Of a stretch of 64,000 nucleotides of DNA, positions 1,479-50,709 are shown piece by piece. The stretch is from Candidatus Saccharicenans sp. GTDB taxonomy: Bacteria; Acidobacteriota; Aminicenantia; Aminicenantales; Saccharicenantaceae. The stretch's first letter is position 1. The number at the start of each line of letters is the position of its first letter. The translations under genes were made by a program, and so were the position numbers. The stretch lies in assembly GCA_049659625.1 (NCBI GenBank), contig JBASPX010000078.1:4128-68127 (forward strand). The letters are read 5' to 3'. The notes beneath the pieces are model-generated. The model was not told the DNA's origin. It ran no database searches and saw nothing but the letters and a program-made list of their open reading frames with translations.

Positions 1479-3575
1479 ATGAAAACACGAAGAACTGAGC
1501 GAGCCGGTTTCATTCCTGCCTCCTTGATATTACTGTATCTGCTGCTTTCAGCTGCCCTGCTGGCCCAGGAAGAAACCATTCAATTCAGGCCAAAACACGA
1601 AATATCGGTAACACTGAAGTTAATCCAGGTTTATGTCACCGACAGCAAAGGACATCCGGTAACCGACCTGGGGAAGAGCGATTTTGAAGTTTATGATAAC
1701 GGGCAGAGAAAAACTATCACCGAATTTGAAAGACACCTCCATTCATTCCTTCTGCCACAGGAAAAGCAGGAAGGTGTCTCCCTTGCTTCTGCCGAAACTC
1801 AGGAAATTGCCAGCCGCAAATTCTTCCTGCTTTTTGATTTTGTTTACAACAACCCGAAGGGACTCAGGGCCACCCGCGAAGCCGCCCTTCATTTTCTCGA
1901 CAGAATCAGCCAGCCGACAGACGAGGTCGGTATCATCACCTACTCCCTGGAAGGTGGCCTGGCCGTAAGAGAATACCTGACGCGCGACCATCGGAAAATT
2001 CGCAAATTTGTTGAATCGATCGGTCTGAAGAACTACCAGAGCAGCGTGGAAAACCTGGAACTGCGCTACTGGAGGCAGGCCAACGACGAAAACCCGCTCG
2101 ACGTCAGCGAGCGGGGAGCCGTGGGCGCCGGCATCTGGTCCGGTTCCGAAAAAGACCCGATCATAGACCTGCCAAACGTCTCCGACGAAATGAAAAGAGC
2201 TTTTATGACATCAGAAAGTCGGGTTCAGGCCCTGACCTTCCTGAAAGAAATGACCAGGCTGTCCAGGGCTCTTAGCTACATTCCGGGTATCAAACATCTT
2301 CTCCTTTTTTCCGCCGGCATCCCGTATTCTCTGTTCTATGGAATTCAGACCCAGGGCCAGGGCGAGAGAAACTGGAGGCATGACTGGGGCCAGACCCAGC
2401 TCCAGCATTATCTTGAAGACATGCAGAAAGCCATCAGCCACGCCAACCTGGTGGTTTATGCTTTCGACACAGAAGACAGCGCGGCCAGAATAAATCAGGA
2501 TATAAGATTAACCGGCATACTGACTCTGGGCAAGGTGGCTGATTACTCTGGCGGAAAATATTTCGGCAACATCCACAATTACAGCAAAGGGATGGAAGAA
2601 GTTCAGCAGATTACCGGCTGTTATTACGTCCTCGGTTATTACGTGGATGAAAAATGGGACGGACAGTATCACGAAATCAAGGTGAAGGTTAACCGACCCA
2701 GGGTTAAAGTCTACGCTCAGAAAGGCTATTTCAACCCCAGACCTTTTAACGAACTGTCGGCCGTGGAAAAACAGCTTCATCTCGTAGACCTCTGCCTGAG
2801 CGAAAAGCCAATGCTTCAGGAACCGCTGACGCTCAAAAGCGGCGGGTTCACTTACCACGAAAAGAGGAAGGAAAACCTGATTCTCTGGACACGGTTAATC
2901 AAAGACGAGATAGAAAAGCTCGCCGGAAACAAACTCGAGCTCATTTTTATCGTTTTTGACAGAGAATCTCAGATTAAGGCTTTTGAGCGGAAAAAGATAA
3001 AGCTGAGCTCACTGCCCGAGGCTGAAGCGGGCTCGGTTTATTTTTCGCCCCCGCTGGAAGTGCCGGCCGGCAGTTACCGCTGCCGGGTGGTGATCAGGAA
3101 TCTGGAAAACGGCAAATCGGCGCTCGGTAGCACCGATTTCACTCTGGGCGAAAGCCGGACGGAAGCAATGGTACTCGGGATGCCTTTGCTGCTTGTGTAT
3201 GATCAGATTGCAGTTTATGAAAACACTCCAGCCTTTTTCCCGCCCGGCCTCAGCCGGTACCTGCCTGCAGGCTCTAAGCTGAAGGCAGGAGCGGAAGAAT
3301 TTTATCTTCTCACCACCTGCGCTTCCCCTGCTCTGGAAAGCCCTCTCCTGGAGTTTAACTGCATAATCCTTCGCGCCGGGGAGAAGGTGACCTCGGTTGT
3401 CCCATCTAATACGGTGCCTGTATCAGCCACAAAAAAATCAGACCTTCAGACCTACCTTCTCAGGATAAAAACTGAACCTCTCCCGCCGGGCAATTACTAC
3501 CTTTACCTTCATGCCACAGAGAAAAAAACCGGCACCCGGGCCACCCGCCACCTTAATCTTCAGGTCTCTGAGTGA
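1479..3575 (+). CDS. von Willebrand factor A domain protein (VWFA-related Acidobacterial domain type), secreted
   Basis: 698-aa ORF with a signal peptide. The N-terminal pattern (KLIQVYVTDSKGHPVTDLGKSDFEVYDNGQRKTITEFE) is typical of the TIGR03436-like VWA family, followed by a VWA-like core. Confidence 0.7.
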   Translation: MKTRRTERAGFIPASLILLYLLLSAALLAQEETIQFRPKHEISVTLKLIQVYVTDSKGHPVTDLGKSDFEVYDNGQRKTITEFERHLHSFLLPQEKQEGVSLASAETQEIASRKFFLLFDFVYNNPKGLRATREAALHFLDRISQPTDEVGIITYSLEGGLAVREYLTRDHRKIRKFVESIGLKNYQSSVENLELRYWRQANDENPLDVSERGAVGAGIWSGSEKDPIIDLPNVSDEMKRAFMTSESRVQALTFLKEMTRLSRALSYIPGIKHLLLFSAGIPYSLFYGIQTQGQGERNWRHDWGQTQLQHYLEDMQKAISHANLVVYAFDTEDSAARINQDIRLTGILTLGKVADYSGGKYFGNIHNYSKGMEEVQQITGCYYVLGYYVDEKWDGQYHEIKVKVNRPRVKVYAQKGYFNPRPFNELSAVEKQLHLVDLCLSEKPMLQEPLTLKSGGFTYHEKRKENLILWTRLIKDEIEKLAGNKLELIFIVFDRESQIKAFERKKIKLSSLPEAEAGSVYFSPPLEVPAGSYRCRVVIRNLENGKSALGSTDFTLGESRTEAMVLGMPLLLVYDQIAVYENTPAFFPPGLSRYLPAGSKLKAGAEEFYLLTTCASPALESPLLEFNCIILRAGEKVTSVVPSNTVPVSATKKSDLQTYLLRIKTEPLPPGNYYLYLHATEKKTGTRATRHLNLQVSE

Positions 3576-3608
3576 AGCTAAGCCAATAACAGGGATCGGA
3601 ACTGGCTA

Positions 3609-5939
3609 TCACTCGATTATTTCTTCTGGCGATCTGGGCATGAATGAAGGCCGTGGTTCGGGCAGCTTTATGTCCAGCCTGTTCCAGTCTGGCGGATTTA
3701 CCCCCAGCAGATGCCTGACAAAAAAGTCATTCCTTTTTCTTTCACCGTAGATTCCGCCCGAACCGTGATTGGCGCCGGGCACAACTAATAGCTCGAAATC
3801 TTTGCCTGCTTTAATCAACGCATTAACCACCTGGTAAGTGCTCGAAGGGTCGACGTTGGTATCAAGCTCCGGCACCATCAACAGAAGTTTTCCGCGCAGA
3901 CGATGGGCATTAACCGTGTTGGAAGAGGCTTCATATTCCGGACCCACCGGCCAGCCCATCCACTGCTCATTCCACCAGATTTTGTCCATGCGGTTATCAT
4001 GGCAACCGGCAGCCGCAAATCCTACCTTATAAAATTCAGGATGAAACAGCAGCGCCGCCATGGCATTCTGACCGCCAGCCGAGGTGCCGTAAATGCCAAC
4101 CCGGCTGATATCATAATAAGGATACTTCGCGGCCACCGCTTTATGCCAGAGAATCCGGTCGGGGAAACCGGCGTCTTTAAGATTTTTCCAGCAGACATCA
4201 TGAAAAGCTTTTGAACGATTGCTGGTGCCCATGCCGTCTATCTGAACCACGATGAAGCCGAGCTCGGCTAAGGACATCATCTGATTCCAGGCAAAAAAGC
4301 TCTTCGGAACGAAGGAGCTGTGAGGACCGGCGTAGATGTATTCAATTACCGGGTATTTTTTCTTCGGGCTGAAATTGGATGGCCGGATGATGACGCCCCA
4401 GATATCAGTGCGGCCGTCGCGTCCCCTGGCCGAAAAAACTTCCGGAGCCTTCCAGCCGGCCTTCAAAAGCTCAGTGATATCGGCTTTCTCCAGCTCCAGA
4501 AGAACTTTTCTGTCTTCGGTACGCCTGAGTTTCATCTCGGGCGCCAGATCAACGCGGGAGTAAAGGTCAACGTAATATTTGAGGTCCGGCGAAAGGATTA
4601 CTGTATGATTGGCATCAGCTTCGGTGAAAGCCTCAAGACCGCTCCCGTCGAAATTAACGCGGTAAAGATGCAGAAAATAAGGATCTTTGCCGGGATACAT
4701 CCCGCTTCCCAGAAACCAGATCTGACGGTGTTCTTCGTCAACCCGCAGCACGCTGCGCACCACCCACTCACCTCTGGTAATCTGATTTTTTACCTGGCCG
4801 GTCTGCCCGTCATAAAGATAAAGGTGGTTCCAGCCGTCCCGCTCCGACATCCAGATTATTTCTTTCCCATCAGCCAGGTCATAGCGATACTTTTTGCTGG
4901 AATAACAGAAGAAAGTCGGACTCTCCTCGTTGATGACAACTCTGGACTTGCCGGTGAGGGCTTCGACCTCAATTACCCGGTAAACCTGATGTCCGCGCTG
5001 ATTGTACTCAAAAGTGAAAGCCCGGCTGTCCTTGCGCCAGGAAAAATCAGTGAGACTGTAAGGGTTGGGGAAAAAAGAATTATCAATATCAATCTGTTTC
5101 CTGCTCTCTATAAGGAACAGCACCGGCTGCGGTACGGGGAGCGGATCTCCCGGCTTGGTGTAAGCTAAGGAGAAATATTTCGGCTGAAGCTGGTCCGACG
5201 GCGAAGATTCCACATAATGAACCAGCCGGCGGAAACCCGGACGAAGGCGCACGGCCACCAGCTTTTTCGAATCGGGCGACCAGAGGAGCGATTGATAGGT
5301 GTAATAATTTCCCTCGCTTCCATCATAGCTCAGAGGAAACTCTTCTTTGCTCTCTGTAGAGCGCAGCCAGACGTTGTAATTGCGGATAAAAGCTTCCCAC
5401 TTTCTGTCAGGCGAAGCCTTGCTCTCAGCGGAAGCGGCCTGAGCCGGCAGACCGCTCATGTCCTGCCAGCCGTCCCGCTGGCCCGGACGAACTCGAGCCG
5501 GTCCCGCTTTTCTGAGTTCGTATTTCGTCAGGTCGCAGCGCCAGACGGAATCCTGGAACTCAAACTCAATAAATTTTTCATCCTCGACAAATCTGATTGA
5601 CCTGAAAGGCAGGGTGAGAGCGGTAAACTTCTCTCCTGTTTCTTTATTGAGAGCAGCGGCCAGTCTCTCATGGTCAAAAGCGGGCGCTTTGGTCAGTTTT
5701 TCTGCGTCCACCAGGATGAATTCATGGCCACCCTTAACCGTCTTGCGGTACCAGAAACGGGGAGTCTTCTCAATCCAGACCGGTGCCTCCGGCAGGTTAT
5801 AGACAAGGCTTTCATACTTTTCCCTGAGGCTCCAGGCCCTCTGGTAATCCTCAAGCTTTCCCTGAGCGGGAGCCGGGATGGTTAAGAAAACCAGAAGCAG
5901 AATCAAACTTACCAGTAATGATCTGAAATGTTTTTTCAT
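3609..5939 (-). CDS. S9 family serine peptidase, dipeptidyl-peptidase IV-like (beta-propeller plus alpha/beta hydrolase)
   Basis: 776-aa ORF with a signal peptide and a GxSxGG nucleophile motif (GTSAGG). The C-terminal Asp/His region (PGANHGSG) matches the prolyl oligopeptidase/DPP IV C-terminus. Confidence 0.8.
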
Positions 5940-7203: not shown

Positions 7204-7318
7204 GGGACGGTGAATTCAGGAGACAGGCGGCGTGTCTCCGTACCGCGCGCAGCGAAAGGGGTTCCCCACGGGGGATGGATGGAGCGAGGACGGGAGGAGG
7301 CGCGCCGTGACAGGACCC
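7204..7318 (+). repeat. Copy A of a GC-rich structured element of about 100 nt (candidate ncRNA or cis-regulatory RNA), with an 18-nt insertion relative to copy B
   Basis: About 85% identical to 47857-47953 over the core gtctccg...cgcgcgcagcg(a/g)aaggggttcccc(a/g)cgggg...cgggaggaggcgc(g/a)ccgtgacaggaccc. A closing helix GGGACGG/CCGU..CCC and an internal CCCC-loop-GGGG hairpin can be drawn. It is about 70% GC in an otherwise AT-richer spacer. Confidence 0.5.
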
Positions 7319-7527
7319 TGCGGGACAAGAGCCGACAGAGGAACAGCAAGAACGTACGGGCTTGATGGCGGCCGGCCGCATGCGCTTTTCCGTTACAATC
7401 AAAATATAACCACGCTGATTCTTTCCCTCTCCTTTTTCTTTAATCTTTTCAAAACATGGATTATGATATTGCCCTGAAATCGTTTTTTAGAAATTTTAAG
7501 AAAAACAGATTAAAAATTAATACTGAT

Positions 7528-46786: not shown

Positions 46787-46945
46787 GATAAAAGGGCTCC
46801 GGTCACTTTCCGGATGTCCGAGATGAATGGTTAAAGCTGGCAGACCACAGCCGTGCCGAACTGCCGGTGAAGCAGTTTTCCCTCAAATTCCGTCTGACCG
46901 GAGATTAAACGCTCTTTTCTTTCTGTTTTTTTCCCGGGTGACTCA

Positions 46946-46969
46946 ATATATGAATAACCATTCATATAT
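46946..46969 (+). promoter_or_regulatory. Perfect 10-bp inverted repeat ATATATGAAT-aacc-ATTCATATAT (candidate dimeric-regulator operator, Fur/Zur-like AT-rich box) upstream of the Tat-signal TGA-containing gene
   Basis: Seen directly. About 190 nt upstream of the ATG at 47162 and overlapping a TATATT -10-like hexamer. Confidence 0.3.
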
Positions 46970-47161
46970 TGGAAGGGCTGGAGGCCGGGTCGTTAACCCT
47001 ACTCCGGCGGCCGGAAATTTTTATTCGCTCGCAAGCCAGAACCGACTGATTTCGCTGCTGGAAAATTTCAAACTCCTGATTATGAATCCAGAAGCCAGAT
47101 TATGTTAGTCTGATACAGATGAAATCGAGTCATTTTCGAATCGTCTGCGGAGGCAATTTTC

Positions 47162-47822
47162 ATGAAAACTCTAAAAAGACGCGATTTTCTTAAAATTTCA
47201 GCCGGCAGCGGTGTCGCCCTGGCCATCACCCCGGAGCTCAAGAGCCCTGTCCGGGAATCAACCAAAACGTCTGCCCTGAGTTTCTCTCTGTCGCCGGGTC
47301 TGGGGAGTCCGGGCGGGCGGACAAAAGTAAAAGTGGCCAGAATCTACATGGGTTTGCCCCGGCCCCACTGACCAAAGCCCTCTCCCAACCTTGAGGAAGA
47401 GGTCAGAACTTACGAGGAATTCTTCAGCCGCCAGAAAGAAGAGCTGACCGACGTCGACTTTACAGTCAACATCCCGGCCAGCGAGTCCGAAGATATCATC
47501 CAACAGGCAGAAAAAATCAAGCAGGCCGACGGCATCCTGGTCATTCATCTGACCATCTGGATCGCCCCGATTCTGGAAGAGATACTGAAATTTAAGAAGC
47601 CTACGGTTATTTTTGCCGCTCCCTACTCGGGTCATGAATGGACGTATTACGGCAGCCTGATGAAACAGGAAAAAGGGGAAATGGTTGATTGCTTTCTGAC
47701 CAGCAACCGGCAGGAACTGATCAGGGCCATCAGGCCATTCCGGGCGATTCACCACCAGCGGGAGGCAACAATTTTTCGTTTTGCCCGGGTGGGATTTCTG
47801 AAATTTCTGATTCCAGGCTGAC
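47162..47822 (+). CDS. Tat-signal protein whose frame continues through an in-frame TGA at 47369-47371. Candidate selenoprotein or recoded gene, alternatively a pseudogene.
   Basis: MKTLKRRDFLKISAGSGVALA is a twin-arginine signal. After the TGA the same frame stays open for 150 codons with protein-like sequence (PKPSPNLEEEVRTYEEFFSRQKEEL...ILVIHLTIWIAPILEEI...) to a TGA at 47820-47822, with no in-frame start near the TGA. A hairpin lies 7 nt downstream of the TGA. RBS GCGGAGG before the ATG. Confidence 0.45.
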
Positions 47823-47856
47823 ATCTACCCCATTTTAAAATCTGAGAAAGGATTAA

Positions 47857-47953
47857 GGGTGTCACGGCGCGTCTCCGAATCGCGCGCAGCGGAAGGGGTT
47901 CCCCGCGGGGATCGGTGAGCGAGCACGGGAGGAGGCGCACCGTGACAGGACCC
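47857..47953 (+). repeat. Copy B of the GC-rich structured element of about 100 nt (candidate ncRNA or cis-regulatory RNA)
   Basis: About 85% identical to 7204-7318. Terminal helix GGGUGUCACGG(C)GCG / CGC(A)CCGUGAC(agga)CCC closes the element, with an internal CCCCgcGGGG hairpin. Lies 34 nt downstream of the preceding gene and about 110 nt upstream of the M14 peptidase gene. Confidence 0.5.
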
Positions 47954-48063
47954 TTCCTCAAGCATGTACCATAAGGGGCAGCTCCTTCCTTCCGGAAAAT
48001 TCCATTTGAAATATGCCCCCTGAAAAATATATATTTTCTCTCTTAAGCTCAACGGAGGAGCTG

Positions 48064-50709
48064 CTGATGAAAAACGTCTTGACCGTCCTCAAAAAAAATC
48101 GATTTTTTTTCAGGCCGCTGGCCTCAAGATTTTTAGCCTTTGTCTTAATCATTCTTATCTTCTCCCGGATATTCGTTTTCGCCGAAATCACTCCTCCCGA
48201 TAAATATCTCGGGTTCAGACCGGGAGACGATTTCAAACTGGCCGACTGGAGTAAAATCACCGGTTATTTCAAACTTCTGGCTCAGTCCTCGCCGCGGGTC
48301 AGAGTGGTCGAGCTCGGACAGACCACTCTCGGCCGGCCTCTGATCATGGCCATCATAACCGCCGAAGAAAACATGCCAGACCTGGAAAAATACCGGAAAA
48401 TACACGCGCGGCTGCATGACCCGAGAGGGCTCAGCCCCGAGGAGAAATCGCAGCTCGTAAAGCAAGGGAAAGCCATCGTCTACATAAGCTGTTCAATCCA
48501 TTCCACCGAGATCGCTGCTTCCCAGATGTCGATGGAACTCGCCTACCGACTGGCCAGCGAGAACAGTCCGGAAATCAAAAAAATACTCAGCGAGGTCATT
48601 CTGCTTCTGATTCCATCAGCCAACCCTGATGGCATCGACCTGGTGACCGACTGGTACTACCGCACGCTGGGAACGCCTTACGAAGGCAGTTCCATGCCCT
48701 GGCTTTATCATTATTACACCGGCCATGATAACAACCGGGACTGGTTCATGCTCACCCAGAAAGAAACTCAGCTGATGGCTAAGGTGCTCTATCAGGAATG
48801 GTATCCGCTGGTCGTTTATGACGTCCATCAGATGGGATCGACCGGACCGCGGCTGTTTCTTCCACCTTACCAGGACCCGATCAATCCGAACCTCGACCCG
48901 CTGCTGCTGAGAGAACTTTATCAGCTGACAGGTGAAGCCGTAATAAGCCTCACCCGCGAAGGCAAAACCGGCGTTTCCACCAGCACCATTTTTGACGGCT
49001 GGTACAACACAGCCAACAGAGCGGCTCCGCTGCGGCACAACGCCCTGGGCATACTTTCAGAAGCAGCCAGCGTGAACATAGCTTCCCCTGTTTTCATTCG
49101 ACCTTCAGAAATAAGAATCTCGGGCGGCGGAAACGAAATTCTCTCCACCAATCTCGAACCCTGGCCCGGCGGCTGGTGGCGGCTGCGCGACATAGTTGAG
49201 TACGAACTCATCGTGGCCATGTCCTTCCTGCGGACTGTTTCCGAGAAAAAAGAAAGATTCATGGAAAATTTCTGTCTGTTCGCCGAGCGGCAGATAAACA
49301 GGGGACTTACTGAGCCACTATACGCTTACCTCATACCGGAAGACCAGAAAGATCTCCCCACCGCTCTGAAACTTTTAGAAATCATCCAGAAAAACGGAGC
49401 GGAAGTTCATCAGGCCACCCGTGCTTTCAAGGCCGACGGTCTCGAATACCCTGCAGGCACCTACGTGATCCTTTTAGCCCAACCTTACCGTGCGTTCGTC
49501 AAGGATCTGCTCGAAAGCAAATCGTATCCGCTGCCCCCCGGCCGTGATCCGGCACAGTACCTCCCGTACGACGAAGCCAGCTGGACGCTGCCTCTGCAGA
49601 TGGGAGTGCGGGTGATTGAGGTTACCAACAAATTTGAAGCCAGCCTGAAACTCCTTCCTCCGGTGTCAGTTCCCGATAGCCAGATTTACGGCAGCGGAAA
49701 ATATTTTGTGGTGGACAGCGGAACCAACAACAGCGTTATTCTGGCTAACAGGCTCTTGAAAAAGAGTCTTCCGGCTGCTTACGCCGACCGGGAATTCTCC
49801 GCCGGCGGGAAAATCTTCAGGGCCGGAAGCCTGGTAGTCGAAAGAAGCCGGATAAGTCCGGCGCAGCTGACCTCTCTGGCCAGGGGCCTCGGTCTACGCA
49901 TTGAAAGCGTAGATTCGGTTTCACCGGCGAACCTCCGTCCGCTGAAACCATACCGCCTGGGTATCTACCAGCCCTGGACCGCGAGCATGGATGAAGGCTG
50001 GACACGCTGGGTGCTCGAGCAGTTTGAATTCAATTTCCAGGTGCTTCATAACGCTGAAATAAGAGCCGGACAGCTGGAGAAAAACTTTACCCACATAATC
50101 CTGCCGTCGATTTCAAGCCGCGTTATCCTTGAGGGCCGGCGCAAGGGTGAAGTTCCTCCCGAATATGCCGGCGGTCTCGGCATTGAAGGAGTTTCCGCTC
50201 TGATTTCCTTCGTCCAGAATGGCGGACAGCTCATAGCCGTAGAAAACTCAGGTGAGTTTGTCATCGAGTATTTCGGCCTTCCGCTGAGAAACATAATCGA
50301 GCCTCGACGGACGAGAGGCGGGGAAAGCGAACAGGCTTCCTCCCCTGACCGGGTCAGAGTTTATTCCCCTGGTTCGATACTGAAAGTTCTGGTTGACAGC
50401 TCGAAACCGGAAGCCTTCGGTCTGGATAAAGAAGTGGCCATCTTTTCCTACTTCAGCCCGGTGTTCGAAATTCTCAAGGCTGAAGCCCCGCACCCGGGAC
50501 CTAAGGTTCATAACCTTGCCTGGTATCCGCCTTACGACCCGCTGCTCAGCGGAATTTTGCTCAACGGCGATAAATTGAAGCATAAATCAGCAGCCGTGGT
50601 CTGCGATGTGGGAAAAGGCCGGGTGGTGCTCCTCGGGTTCAACGTGCTTCACCGGGCTCAGGCCCACGGCAGCTTTAAGTTCCTTTTTAACCCGATAATC
50701 TATCGGTGA
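48064..50709 (+). CDS. M14 family zinc carboxypeptidase with a large C-terminal extension, secreted
   Basis: ATG at 48064 with a GGAGGA RBS (the track start at 48013 is an extension). Signal peptide. HxxE zinc motif (SIHSTE) and M14-like core. Confidence 0.8.
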   Translation: MMKNVLTVLKKNRFFFRPLASRFLAFVLIILIFSRIFVFAEITPPDKYLGFRPGDDFKLADWSKITGYFKLLAQSSPRVRVVELGQTTLGRPLIMAIITAEENMPDLEKYRKIHARLHDPRGLSPEEKSQLVKQGKAIVYISCSIHSTEIAASQMSMELAYRLASENSPEIKKILSEVILLLIPSANPDGIDLVTDWYYRTLGTPYEGSSMPWLYHYYTGHDNNRDWFMLTQKETQLMAKVLYQEWYPLVVYDVHQMGSTGPRLFLPPYQDPINPNLDPLLLRELYQLTGEAVISLTREGKTGVSTSTIFDGWYNTANRAAPLRHNALGILSEAASVNIASPVFIRPSEIRISGGGNEILSTNLEPWPGGWWRLRDIVEYELIVAMSFLRTVSEKKERFMENFCLFAERQINRGLTEPLYAYLIPEDQKDLPTALKLLEIIQKNGAEVHQATRAFKADGLEYPAGTYVILLAQPYRAFVKDLLESKSYPLPPGRDPAQYLPYDEASWTLPLQMGVRVIEVTNKFEASLKLLPPVSVPDSQIYGSGKYFVVDSGTNNSVILANRLLKKSLPAAYADREFSAGGKIFRAGSLVVERSRISPAQLTSLARGLGLRIESVDSVSPANLRPLKPYRLGIYQPWTASMDEGWTRWVLEQFEFNFQVLHNAEIRAGQLEKNFTHIILPSISSRVILEGRRKGEVPPEYAGGLGIEGVSALISFVQNGGQLIAVENSGEFVIEYFGLPLRNIIEPRRTRGGESEQASSPDRVRVYSPGSILKVLVDSSKPEAFGLDKEVAIFSYFSPVFEILKAEAPHPGPKVHNLAWYPPYDPLLSGILLNGDKLKHKSAAVVCDVGKGRVVLLGFNVLHRAQAHGSFKFLFNPIIYR

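Follow-up and report, generated by a model that had tools for sequence, protein, structure and literature searches.

Is the TGA that interrupts the Tat-signal gene at 47162-47822 a codon that the cell reads as an amino acid, or is it a lesion in a gene that is being lost? A sequence-only reading of the 64-kb stretch of DNA analysed here (the window, 64,000 nt) had proposed a selenoprotein or a programmed recoding event at this site, and had listed a sequencing error and a recent pseudogene as further options. We conclude, with a probability of about 0.93, that 47162-47822 is a unitary pseudogene, in which the change of a Trp codon to a stop and the loss of the 3' part have become fixed in a Saccharicenans population that has been sampled widely. 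As a pseudogene it is of an ordinary kind. The coordinates of the features are collected in Table 1.

The locus is on the + strand of the window, where a GGAGG Shine-Dalgarno sequence precedes the ATG at 47162. The ORF that starts there encodes MKTLKRRDFLKISAGSGVALA... and ends at the TGA at 47369-47371; its N-terminus has KRRDFLK followed by a hydrophobic stretch, and the motif is kept in the orthologues. We scanned the readthrough product with Pfam and NCBIfam and found nothing beyond a sub-threshold Tat signal (Pfam TAT_signal with E 2.7e-4 and 21.2 bits, just under the cut-off of 22.7; TIGR01409 with 15 bits and a cut-off of 16.7). Beyond the TGA, 150 further codons are stop-free in the same frame until the TGA at 47820-47822, for which the chance probability is roughly 7e-4 (~(61/64)^150), and the first in-frame ATG, GTG or TTG is at 47660. 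An antisense ORF of 188 aa spans 47258-47824. Hence, the anatomy described from the letters (the Tat-signal ORF with its stop, the 150 codons that follow in frame, the lack of a start codon near the internal TGA and the antisense ORF) is present as described.

The frame is open after the internal TGA because of homology: with the readthrough translation as the query, a protein search returned 67 homologues (E down to 1e-93), and the continuation of the frame is an N-terminal α/β domain with DGILxIHL and FAAPYSGHEW motifs. The gene order around the locus (OPT transporter, M29 peptidase, 329-aa gene, the pseudogene, M14 peptidase and CN-hydrolase) is common to the window and to two relatives, L001 and L002. 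For the M14 peptidase, the mechanical ORF at 48013-50709 begins with the ATG at 48013 and has 898 aa, and the orthologous gene calls of 880 aa correspond to the ATG at 48067; since a promoter-like site (48006-48035) falls within the longer, 898-aa ORF, the true start is probably the ATG at 48067.

Table 1. Features of the pseudogene locus, in window coordinates
Feature	Position	Strand	Evidence
AT-rich perfect palindrome, 12-bp arms and 4-nt spacer: CAATATATGAAT-AACC-ATTCATATATTG	46944..46971		unique in window
Pseudogene 5' fragment: Tat signal and first ~47 mature residues	47162..47371	+	ORF, TAT_signal, TGG in L001
Pseudogene continuation, same frame, residues ~71-202 of the 489-aa intact protein	47372..47766	+	alignment, tblastn, blastn
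'SECIS-like' hairpin: weak window-specific stem in coding sequence, no recoding element	47378..47402	+	z -1.6, no Rfam hit
Junction sequence past the homology breakpoint	47767..47859		local alignments with the missing 3' part of intact orthologues, both strands, no better than shuffles
GC-rich ~95-nt hairpin repeat at the deletion junction	47860..47955		88% identical second copy at 7228-7319

The codon at the internal stop in homologues

Every protein homologue that spans the TGA position has a Trp there, in the motif H/L/Y-W-P-K/T-P. We also aligned loci from GTDB species-representative genomes, keeping the best 80 of 364 confirmed, and found the aligned codon is TGG (Trp) in 73/80 and TAC or TAT (Tyr) in 7/80. 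Among these best 80 of 364 loci, TGA, TGC, TGT, Cys or Sec occurs at this codon in 0/80. Among the relatives, a Candidatus Saccharicenans MAG (L001/L007, contig JASEFX010000004.1) is the closest, with ~93% nt identity to the window across the aligned remnant. L001 reads CACTGGCC and the window reads CACTGACC, which is TGG versus TGA at this codon, and this difference, together with the Trp of the homologues, shows that the stop arose by a G-to-A transition. This transition is the first of at least two disabling lesions, by which the conserved Trp codon of the H-W-P-K-P motif became the TGA at 47369-47371.

Where a selenoprotein has Sec, its homologues have Cys or Sec at the aligned position. 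Since the homologues have Trp here, the selenoprotein reading is removed. The sequence-only reading had named, as an outcome that would point to an error or a pseudogene, uninterrupted orthologues with a sense codon at this position and no conserved hairpin, and this is what we found, as expected for a pseudogene.

The hairpin 3' of the TGA had been placed where a bacterial SECIS element is expected. Its arms are present; the SECIS-like role did not hold up. The arms do not pair perfectly (the fold of the 25-mer has bulges and an energy of -8.6 kcal/mol), and in the 71-nt context of the hairpin 13/200 shuffles fold equally well (z = -1.6). Hence, the hairpin is no more than expected by chance. 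The 15 orthologous segments form different, unrelated and mostly weaker structures than that of the window, and the best stem of the window (CUGACC/GGUCAG) forms only with substitutions specific to the window; L001 does not have it. Searching Rfam with the region at E<=10 gave four weak matches, all to unrelated families of RNA, and no SECIS, and searching it with the whole window at the gathering threshold likewise gave neither a SECIS nor any other relevant family. According to ARAGORN, the 64-kb window has no tRNA, hence no tRNA-Sec, and a literature search for Saccharicenans and selenocysteine found no papers.

Truncation and decay of the gene

The gene also lacks its 3' part. In the intact orthologues, 412-432 codons follow the Trp, and in the window 150 do. 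The frame is full-length (~480-500 codons) in about 70/80 of the GTDB-representative loci (best 80 of 364), and the Saccharicenans loci L008, L010 and L015 each encode 489 aa intact. The L010 gene is the ORF 3001-4470 of Ca. Saccharicenans subterraneus. We found homology to the intact orthologues at 47149-47766 and then again from about 48000-48070, before the M14 peptidase gene, so that 238 nt in the window stand in the place of ~980 nt of L008. This second lesion, in which the 238 nt include a dispersed hairpin repeat, has cost the gene ~270 C-terminal codons; the window copy is without the central and C-terminal domains of the AraA/FucI fold described below.

The junction sequence that begins past the homology breakpoint supplies the last ~18 codons of the frame and the TGA at 47820-47822. 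We took an 18/20 antisense match between this sequence and L002 (E 0.07) to be fortuitous. The hairpin repeat that follows has long terminal inverted arms (GTGTCACGGCGCG...CGCACCGTGACA) and folds as one long hairpin (-55.6 kcal/mol, z -2.9), and both of its copies in the window are intergenic. It is MITE- or REP-like and had no match in Rfam. Only its right half is found in L001 (L001 6649-6707), and it is absent from the loci with an intact gene.

At the same syntenic site, the L001 copy has lesions of its own: the start ATG is changed to ACG, 30 nt of the signal peptide are deleted, a TAT is changed to TAG and there is a frameshift, with the TGG kept. The boundary of its 3' deletion also differs from that of the window, with ~48 more gene codons retained. 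The lesions of L001 are independent of those of the window.

A further Saccharicenans genome, L002 (GCA_052746335.1), has a 1-nt deletion at about 6960 (GGCCTG to GGCTG), which splits the orthologue into 333 + 136 aa. Since this split orthologue is seen in two assemblies (L002 and L003, the latter from Logan SRR29554395), the gene, it is suggested, is being lost repeatedly in the Saccharicenans clade.

Between the window and L001, the remnant has a dN/dS of 0.40 (22 non-synonymous and 16 synonymous changes in 174 codons), and the five flanking genes have 0.04-0.16 at similar dS. We also took the 90 residues that are unchanged across nine close orthologues as the clade-invariant set and found 11/90 changed in the window (e.g. 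L75P, and L199Q in the HHLREA motif) and 11/90 changed in L001 (e.g. P154S in the invariant PYSGH motif). Hence, purifying selection on the remnant is relaxed. The frame past the TGA still looks coding only because the inactivation is recent and further stops have yet to arise, and translation most likely ends at the TGA at 47369-47371.

Hence, the recent pseudogene that had been listed as one option among several is borne out by the intact orthologues, the TGG-to-TGA change, the 3' loss, the L001 lesions and the dN/dS. The locus resembles other unitary bacterial pseudogenes in its syntenic intact orthologues, premature stop, 3' deletion, raised dN/dS and lesions in a sister genome; it differs from them in one particular feature, the small dispersed hairpin repeat at the deletion junction.

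Other explanations for the TGA

The selenoprotein reading, in which SelB and tRNA-Sec insert selenocysteine at the UGA at 47369 with the hairpin as its SECIS, draws on the in-frame TGA, the open frame beyond it and a stem-loop that can be drawn 7-30 nt 3' of the TGA, and in these respects the locus is like bacterial selenoprotein genes (e.g. fdhF, with a UGA and a SECIS immediately 3'). Unlike such genes, it has homologues with Trp or Tyr at the codon (Cys or Sec in none of the best 80 of 364 loci), no orthologue with a TGA, and a hairpin that lacks significance and is not conserved, not even in L001 with its ~93% nt identity; Rfam gave only the four weak matches to unrelated families, the window has no tRNA at all, and the product would be without catalytic domains in any case. 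We therefore regard the headline claim of a selenoprotein or programmed recoding as refuted, and selenocysteine at this codon as extremely improbable. A slim chance, somewhat larger than that of selenocysteine, goes to leaky or programmed readthrough, in which near-cognate tRNA-Trp reads the UGA-C and gives a 219-aa exported N-terminal-domain protein with some function. When a C comes next, UGA is prone to misreading by tRNA-Trp; Trp is also the ancestral residue, and the frame is open for 150 codons past the TGA. The window copy also has an intact ribosome-binding site, start codon and Tat signal, which counts against a pseudogene, since the 69-aa product or low levels of the Trp-misread 219-aa product could still be made. 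The dN/dS of 0.40 likewise counts for readthrough and against a pseudogene: it is not 1, so part of the divergence took place under constraint, or weak constraint persists. Against readthrough, the stop is found at this codon in 0 orthologues (best 80 of 364 loci), so there is no hint of a readthrough signal under selection; ~270 residues of the AraA/FucI fold would be missing from the product, which would end in ~18 unrelated residues; clade-invariant residues are mutated 3' of the TGA (the L199Q change in HHLREA is one); and the sister genome L001 has wrecked the same gene by other routes. It is similarly unlikely that the truncated allele is not dead, whether through low-level tRNA-Trp misreading that restores the ancestral Trp and gives a 219-aa Tat-exported N-terminal-domain protein, or because the near-clonal population has kept the 69-aa Tat-signal product in a new role.

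A sequencing or assembly error, with the gene intact in the organism and the TGA a base-call artefact, would be of the type that such errors can make, as TGA differs from TGG by a single base. However, an exact-protein look-up found the exact 69-aa ORF on 10 contigs (an exact-pattern scan of metagenome_contigs around the TGA gave 0 matches), and we compared the places of six of these contigs (L087-L092) with window positions 46787-48066 (1,280 nt). Identity to the window is 100% in Logan SRR28822775, SRR28822772, SRR26201533 and SRR3654270 and in the JGI metagenome 3300006674, and it is 99.8% in the NCBI MAG GCA_964405965.1 over the 1,020 nt that its contig covers. A base error cannot explain ~270 missing codons, and at least five other assemblies carry the truncated allele without any difference; hence, we treat the option of an error as excluded and its probability as negligible. 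The least probable explanation is a genome-wide reassignment of UGA to Trp, as in a code 4-like genetic code. The TGA does fall exactly at a conserved Trp codon; however, TGA terminates 17/30 long ORFs in the window and is therefore a normal stop here, as the sequence-only reading had argued, and this usage refutes the reassignment. The M29 peptidase, M14 peptidase and CN-hydrolase genes each end with TGA at the lengths of their L001 orthologues (315, 880 and 276 codons, respectively), and the relatives have no TGA at this site (TGG in 73 of the best 80 of 364 loci).

The compared segment includes non-coding and pseudogene DNA, and it is 100% identical in 5/6 assemblies (four SRA runs and one JGI metagenome). 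Because 1,280 nt are identical in this way, the comparison indicates a near-clonal Saccharicenans population that has been sampled repeatedly.

The intact parent family and what outlives the gene

The intact parent of the pseudogene has ~489 aa (~480-500 aa in the wider family) and an N-terminal twin-arginine signal. We confirmed 364 loci of the family in GTDB species representatives, and the best 80 are mainly from Aminicenantes, Planctomycetota and Armatimonadota, in which the family is widespread. No curated Pfam or NCBIfam family covers it: no Pfam family was above threshold for the intact members (AraA_central had 19.2 bits with a threshold of 24), NF048012 had 46.5 bits with a threshold of 700, and NF002795 had 21.9 bits with a threshold of 622. 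The NCBIfam sulfoquinovose isomerase model matched weakly (2e-12), and the L-arabinose isomerase model was also weak.

A PDB sequence search with an intact orthologue gave no match, and the fold search alone was informative. Using Foldseek with the AlphaFold model of the intact homologue P0041 (pLDDT 84, pTM 0.83), we found E. coli L-arabinose isomerase (4f2d_A, E 8e-19, TM 0.70) and L-fucose isomerase (4c20_B, E 8e-12). The parent is hence predicted, on this model, to be a Tat-signal protein with the three-domain AraA/FucI fold. It is like the AraA/FucI superfamily in predicted structure; however, it is only 15-17% identical to AraA, with sequence scores far below the family cut-offs, and it adds the twin-arginine signal and an extra N-terminal stretch of ~60 residues that contains HWPKP. 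Known AraA/FucI isomerases are cytoplasmic. An apparently exported sugar-isomerase-like protein, as predicted here, would be unusual.

A family-wide recoding site near residue ~340 was suspected because the protein-database matches that contain the N-terminus are all <=365 aa, and several of them, on long contigs, are followed by a second ORF. We rejected this site since the frame breaks differ in position and kind (L002 has lost 1 nt, L004 has gained 1 nt, L005 has lost ~25 nt and L006 has two shifts), and the full ~480-500-codon frame in about 70 of the best 80 of 364 loci also rules it out. L004 (ERZ25039515 contig_114835) and L006 (ERZ25039503 contig_37224) have the family gene in frameshifted form, and because the genes next to it are also in pieces (e.g. 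a 90-aa piece of S-AdoMet synthetase), they look like indel-rich, error-prone long-read assemblies. Entries of this type make the family appear fragmentary in the protein database.

Upstream of the pseudogene, a perfect palindrome with 10-bp arms had been noted at 46946-46969. The palindrome is real and larger than was described (Table 1), and with 0 occurrences expected by chance, the window has one. It is kept upstream of the orthologous gene in L001, L002, L008, L012 and L015, where the surrounding intergenic DNA has diverged, and a terminator-like hairpin (47003-47015 and a T-run) lies between the palindrome and the start of the gene. The palindrome is probably a regulator-binding site, as yet putative, that has outlived the gene.

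The result is mainly a negative one: an attractive candidate for a selenoprotein or recoding event is an ordinary pseudogene, and 47162-47822 should be annotated as such, neither as a 69-aa gene nor as a selenoprotein. The test that decides the matter is cheap, as it consists of the residue that homologues carry at the stop codon and a check of whether the gene is full-length. As a by-product, the parent family has been defined; it is uncharacterised and perhaps worth a study of its own.
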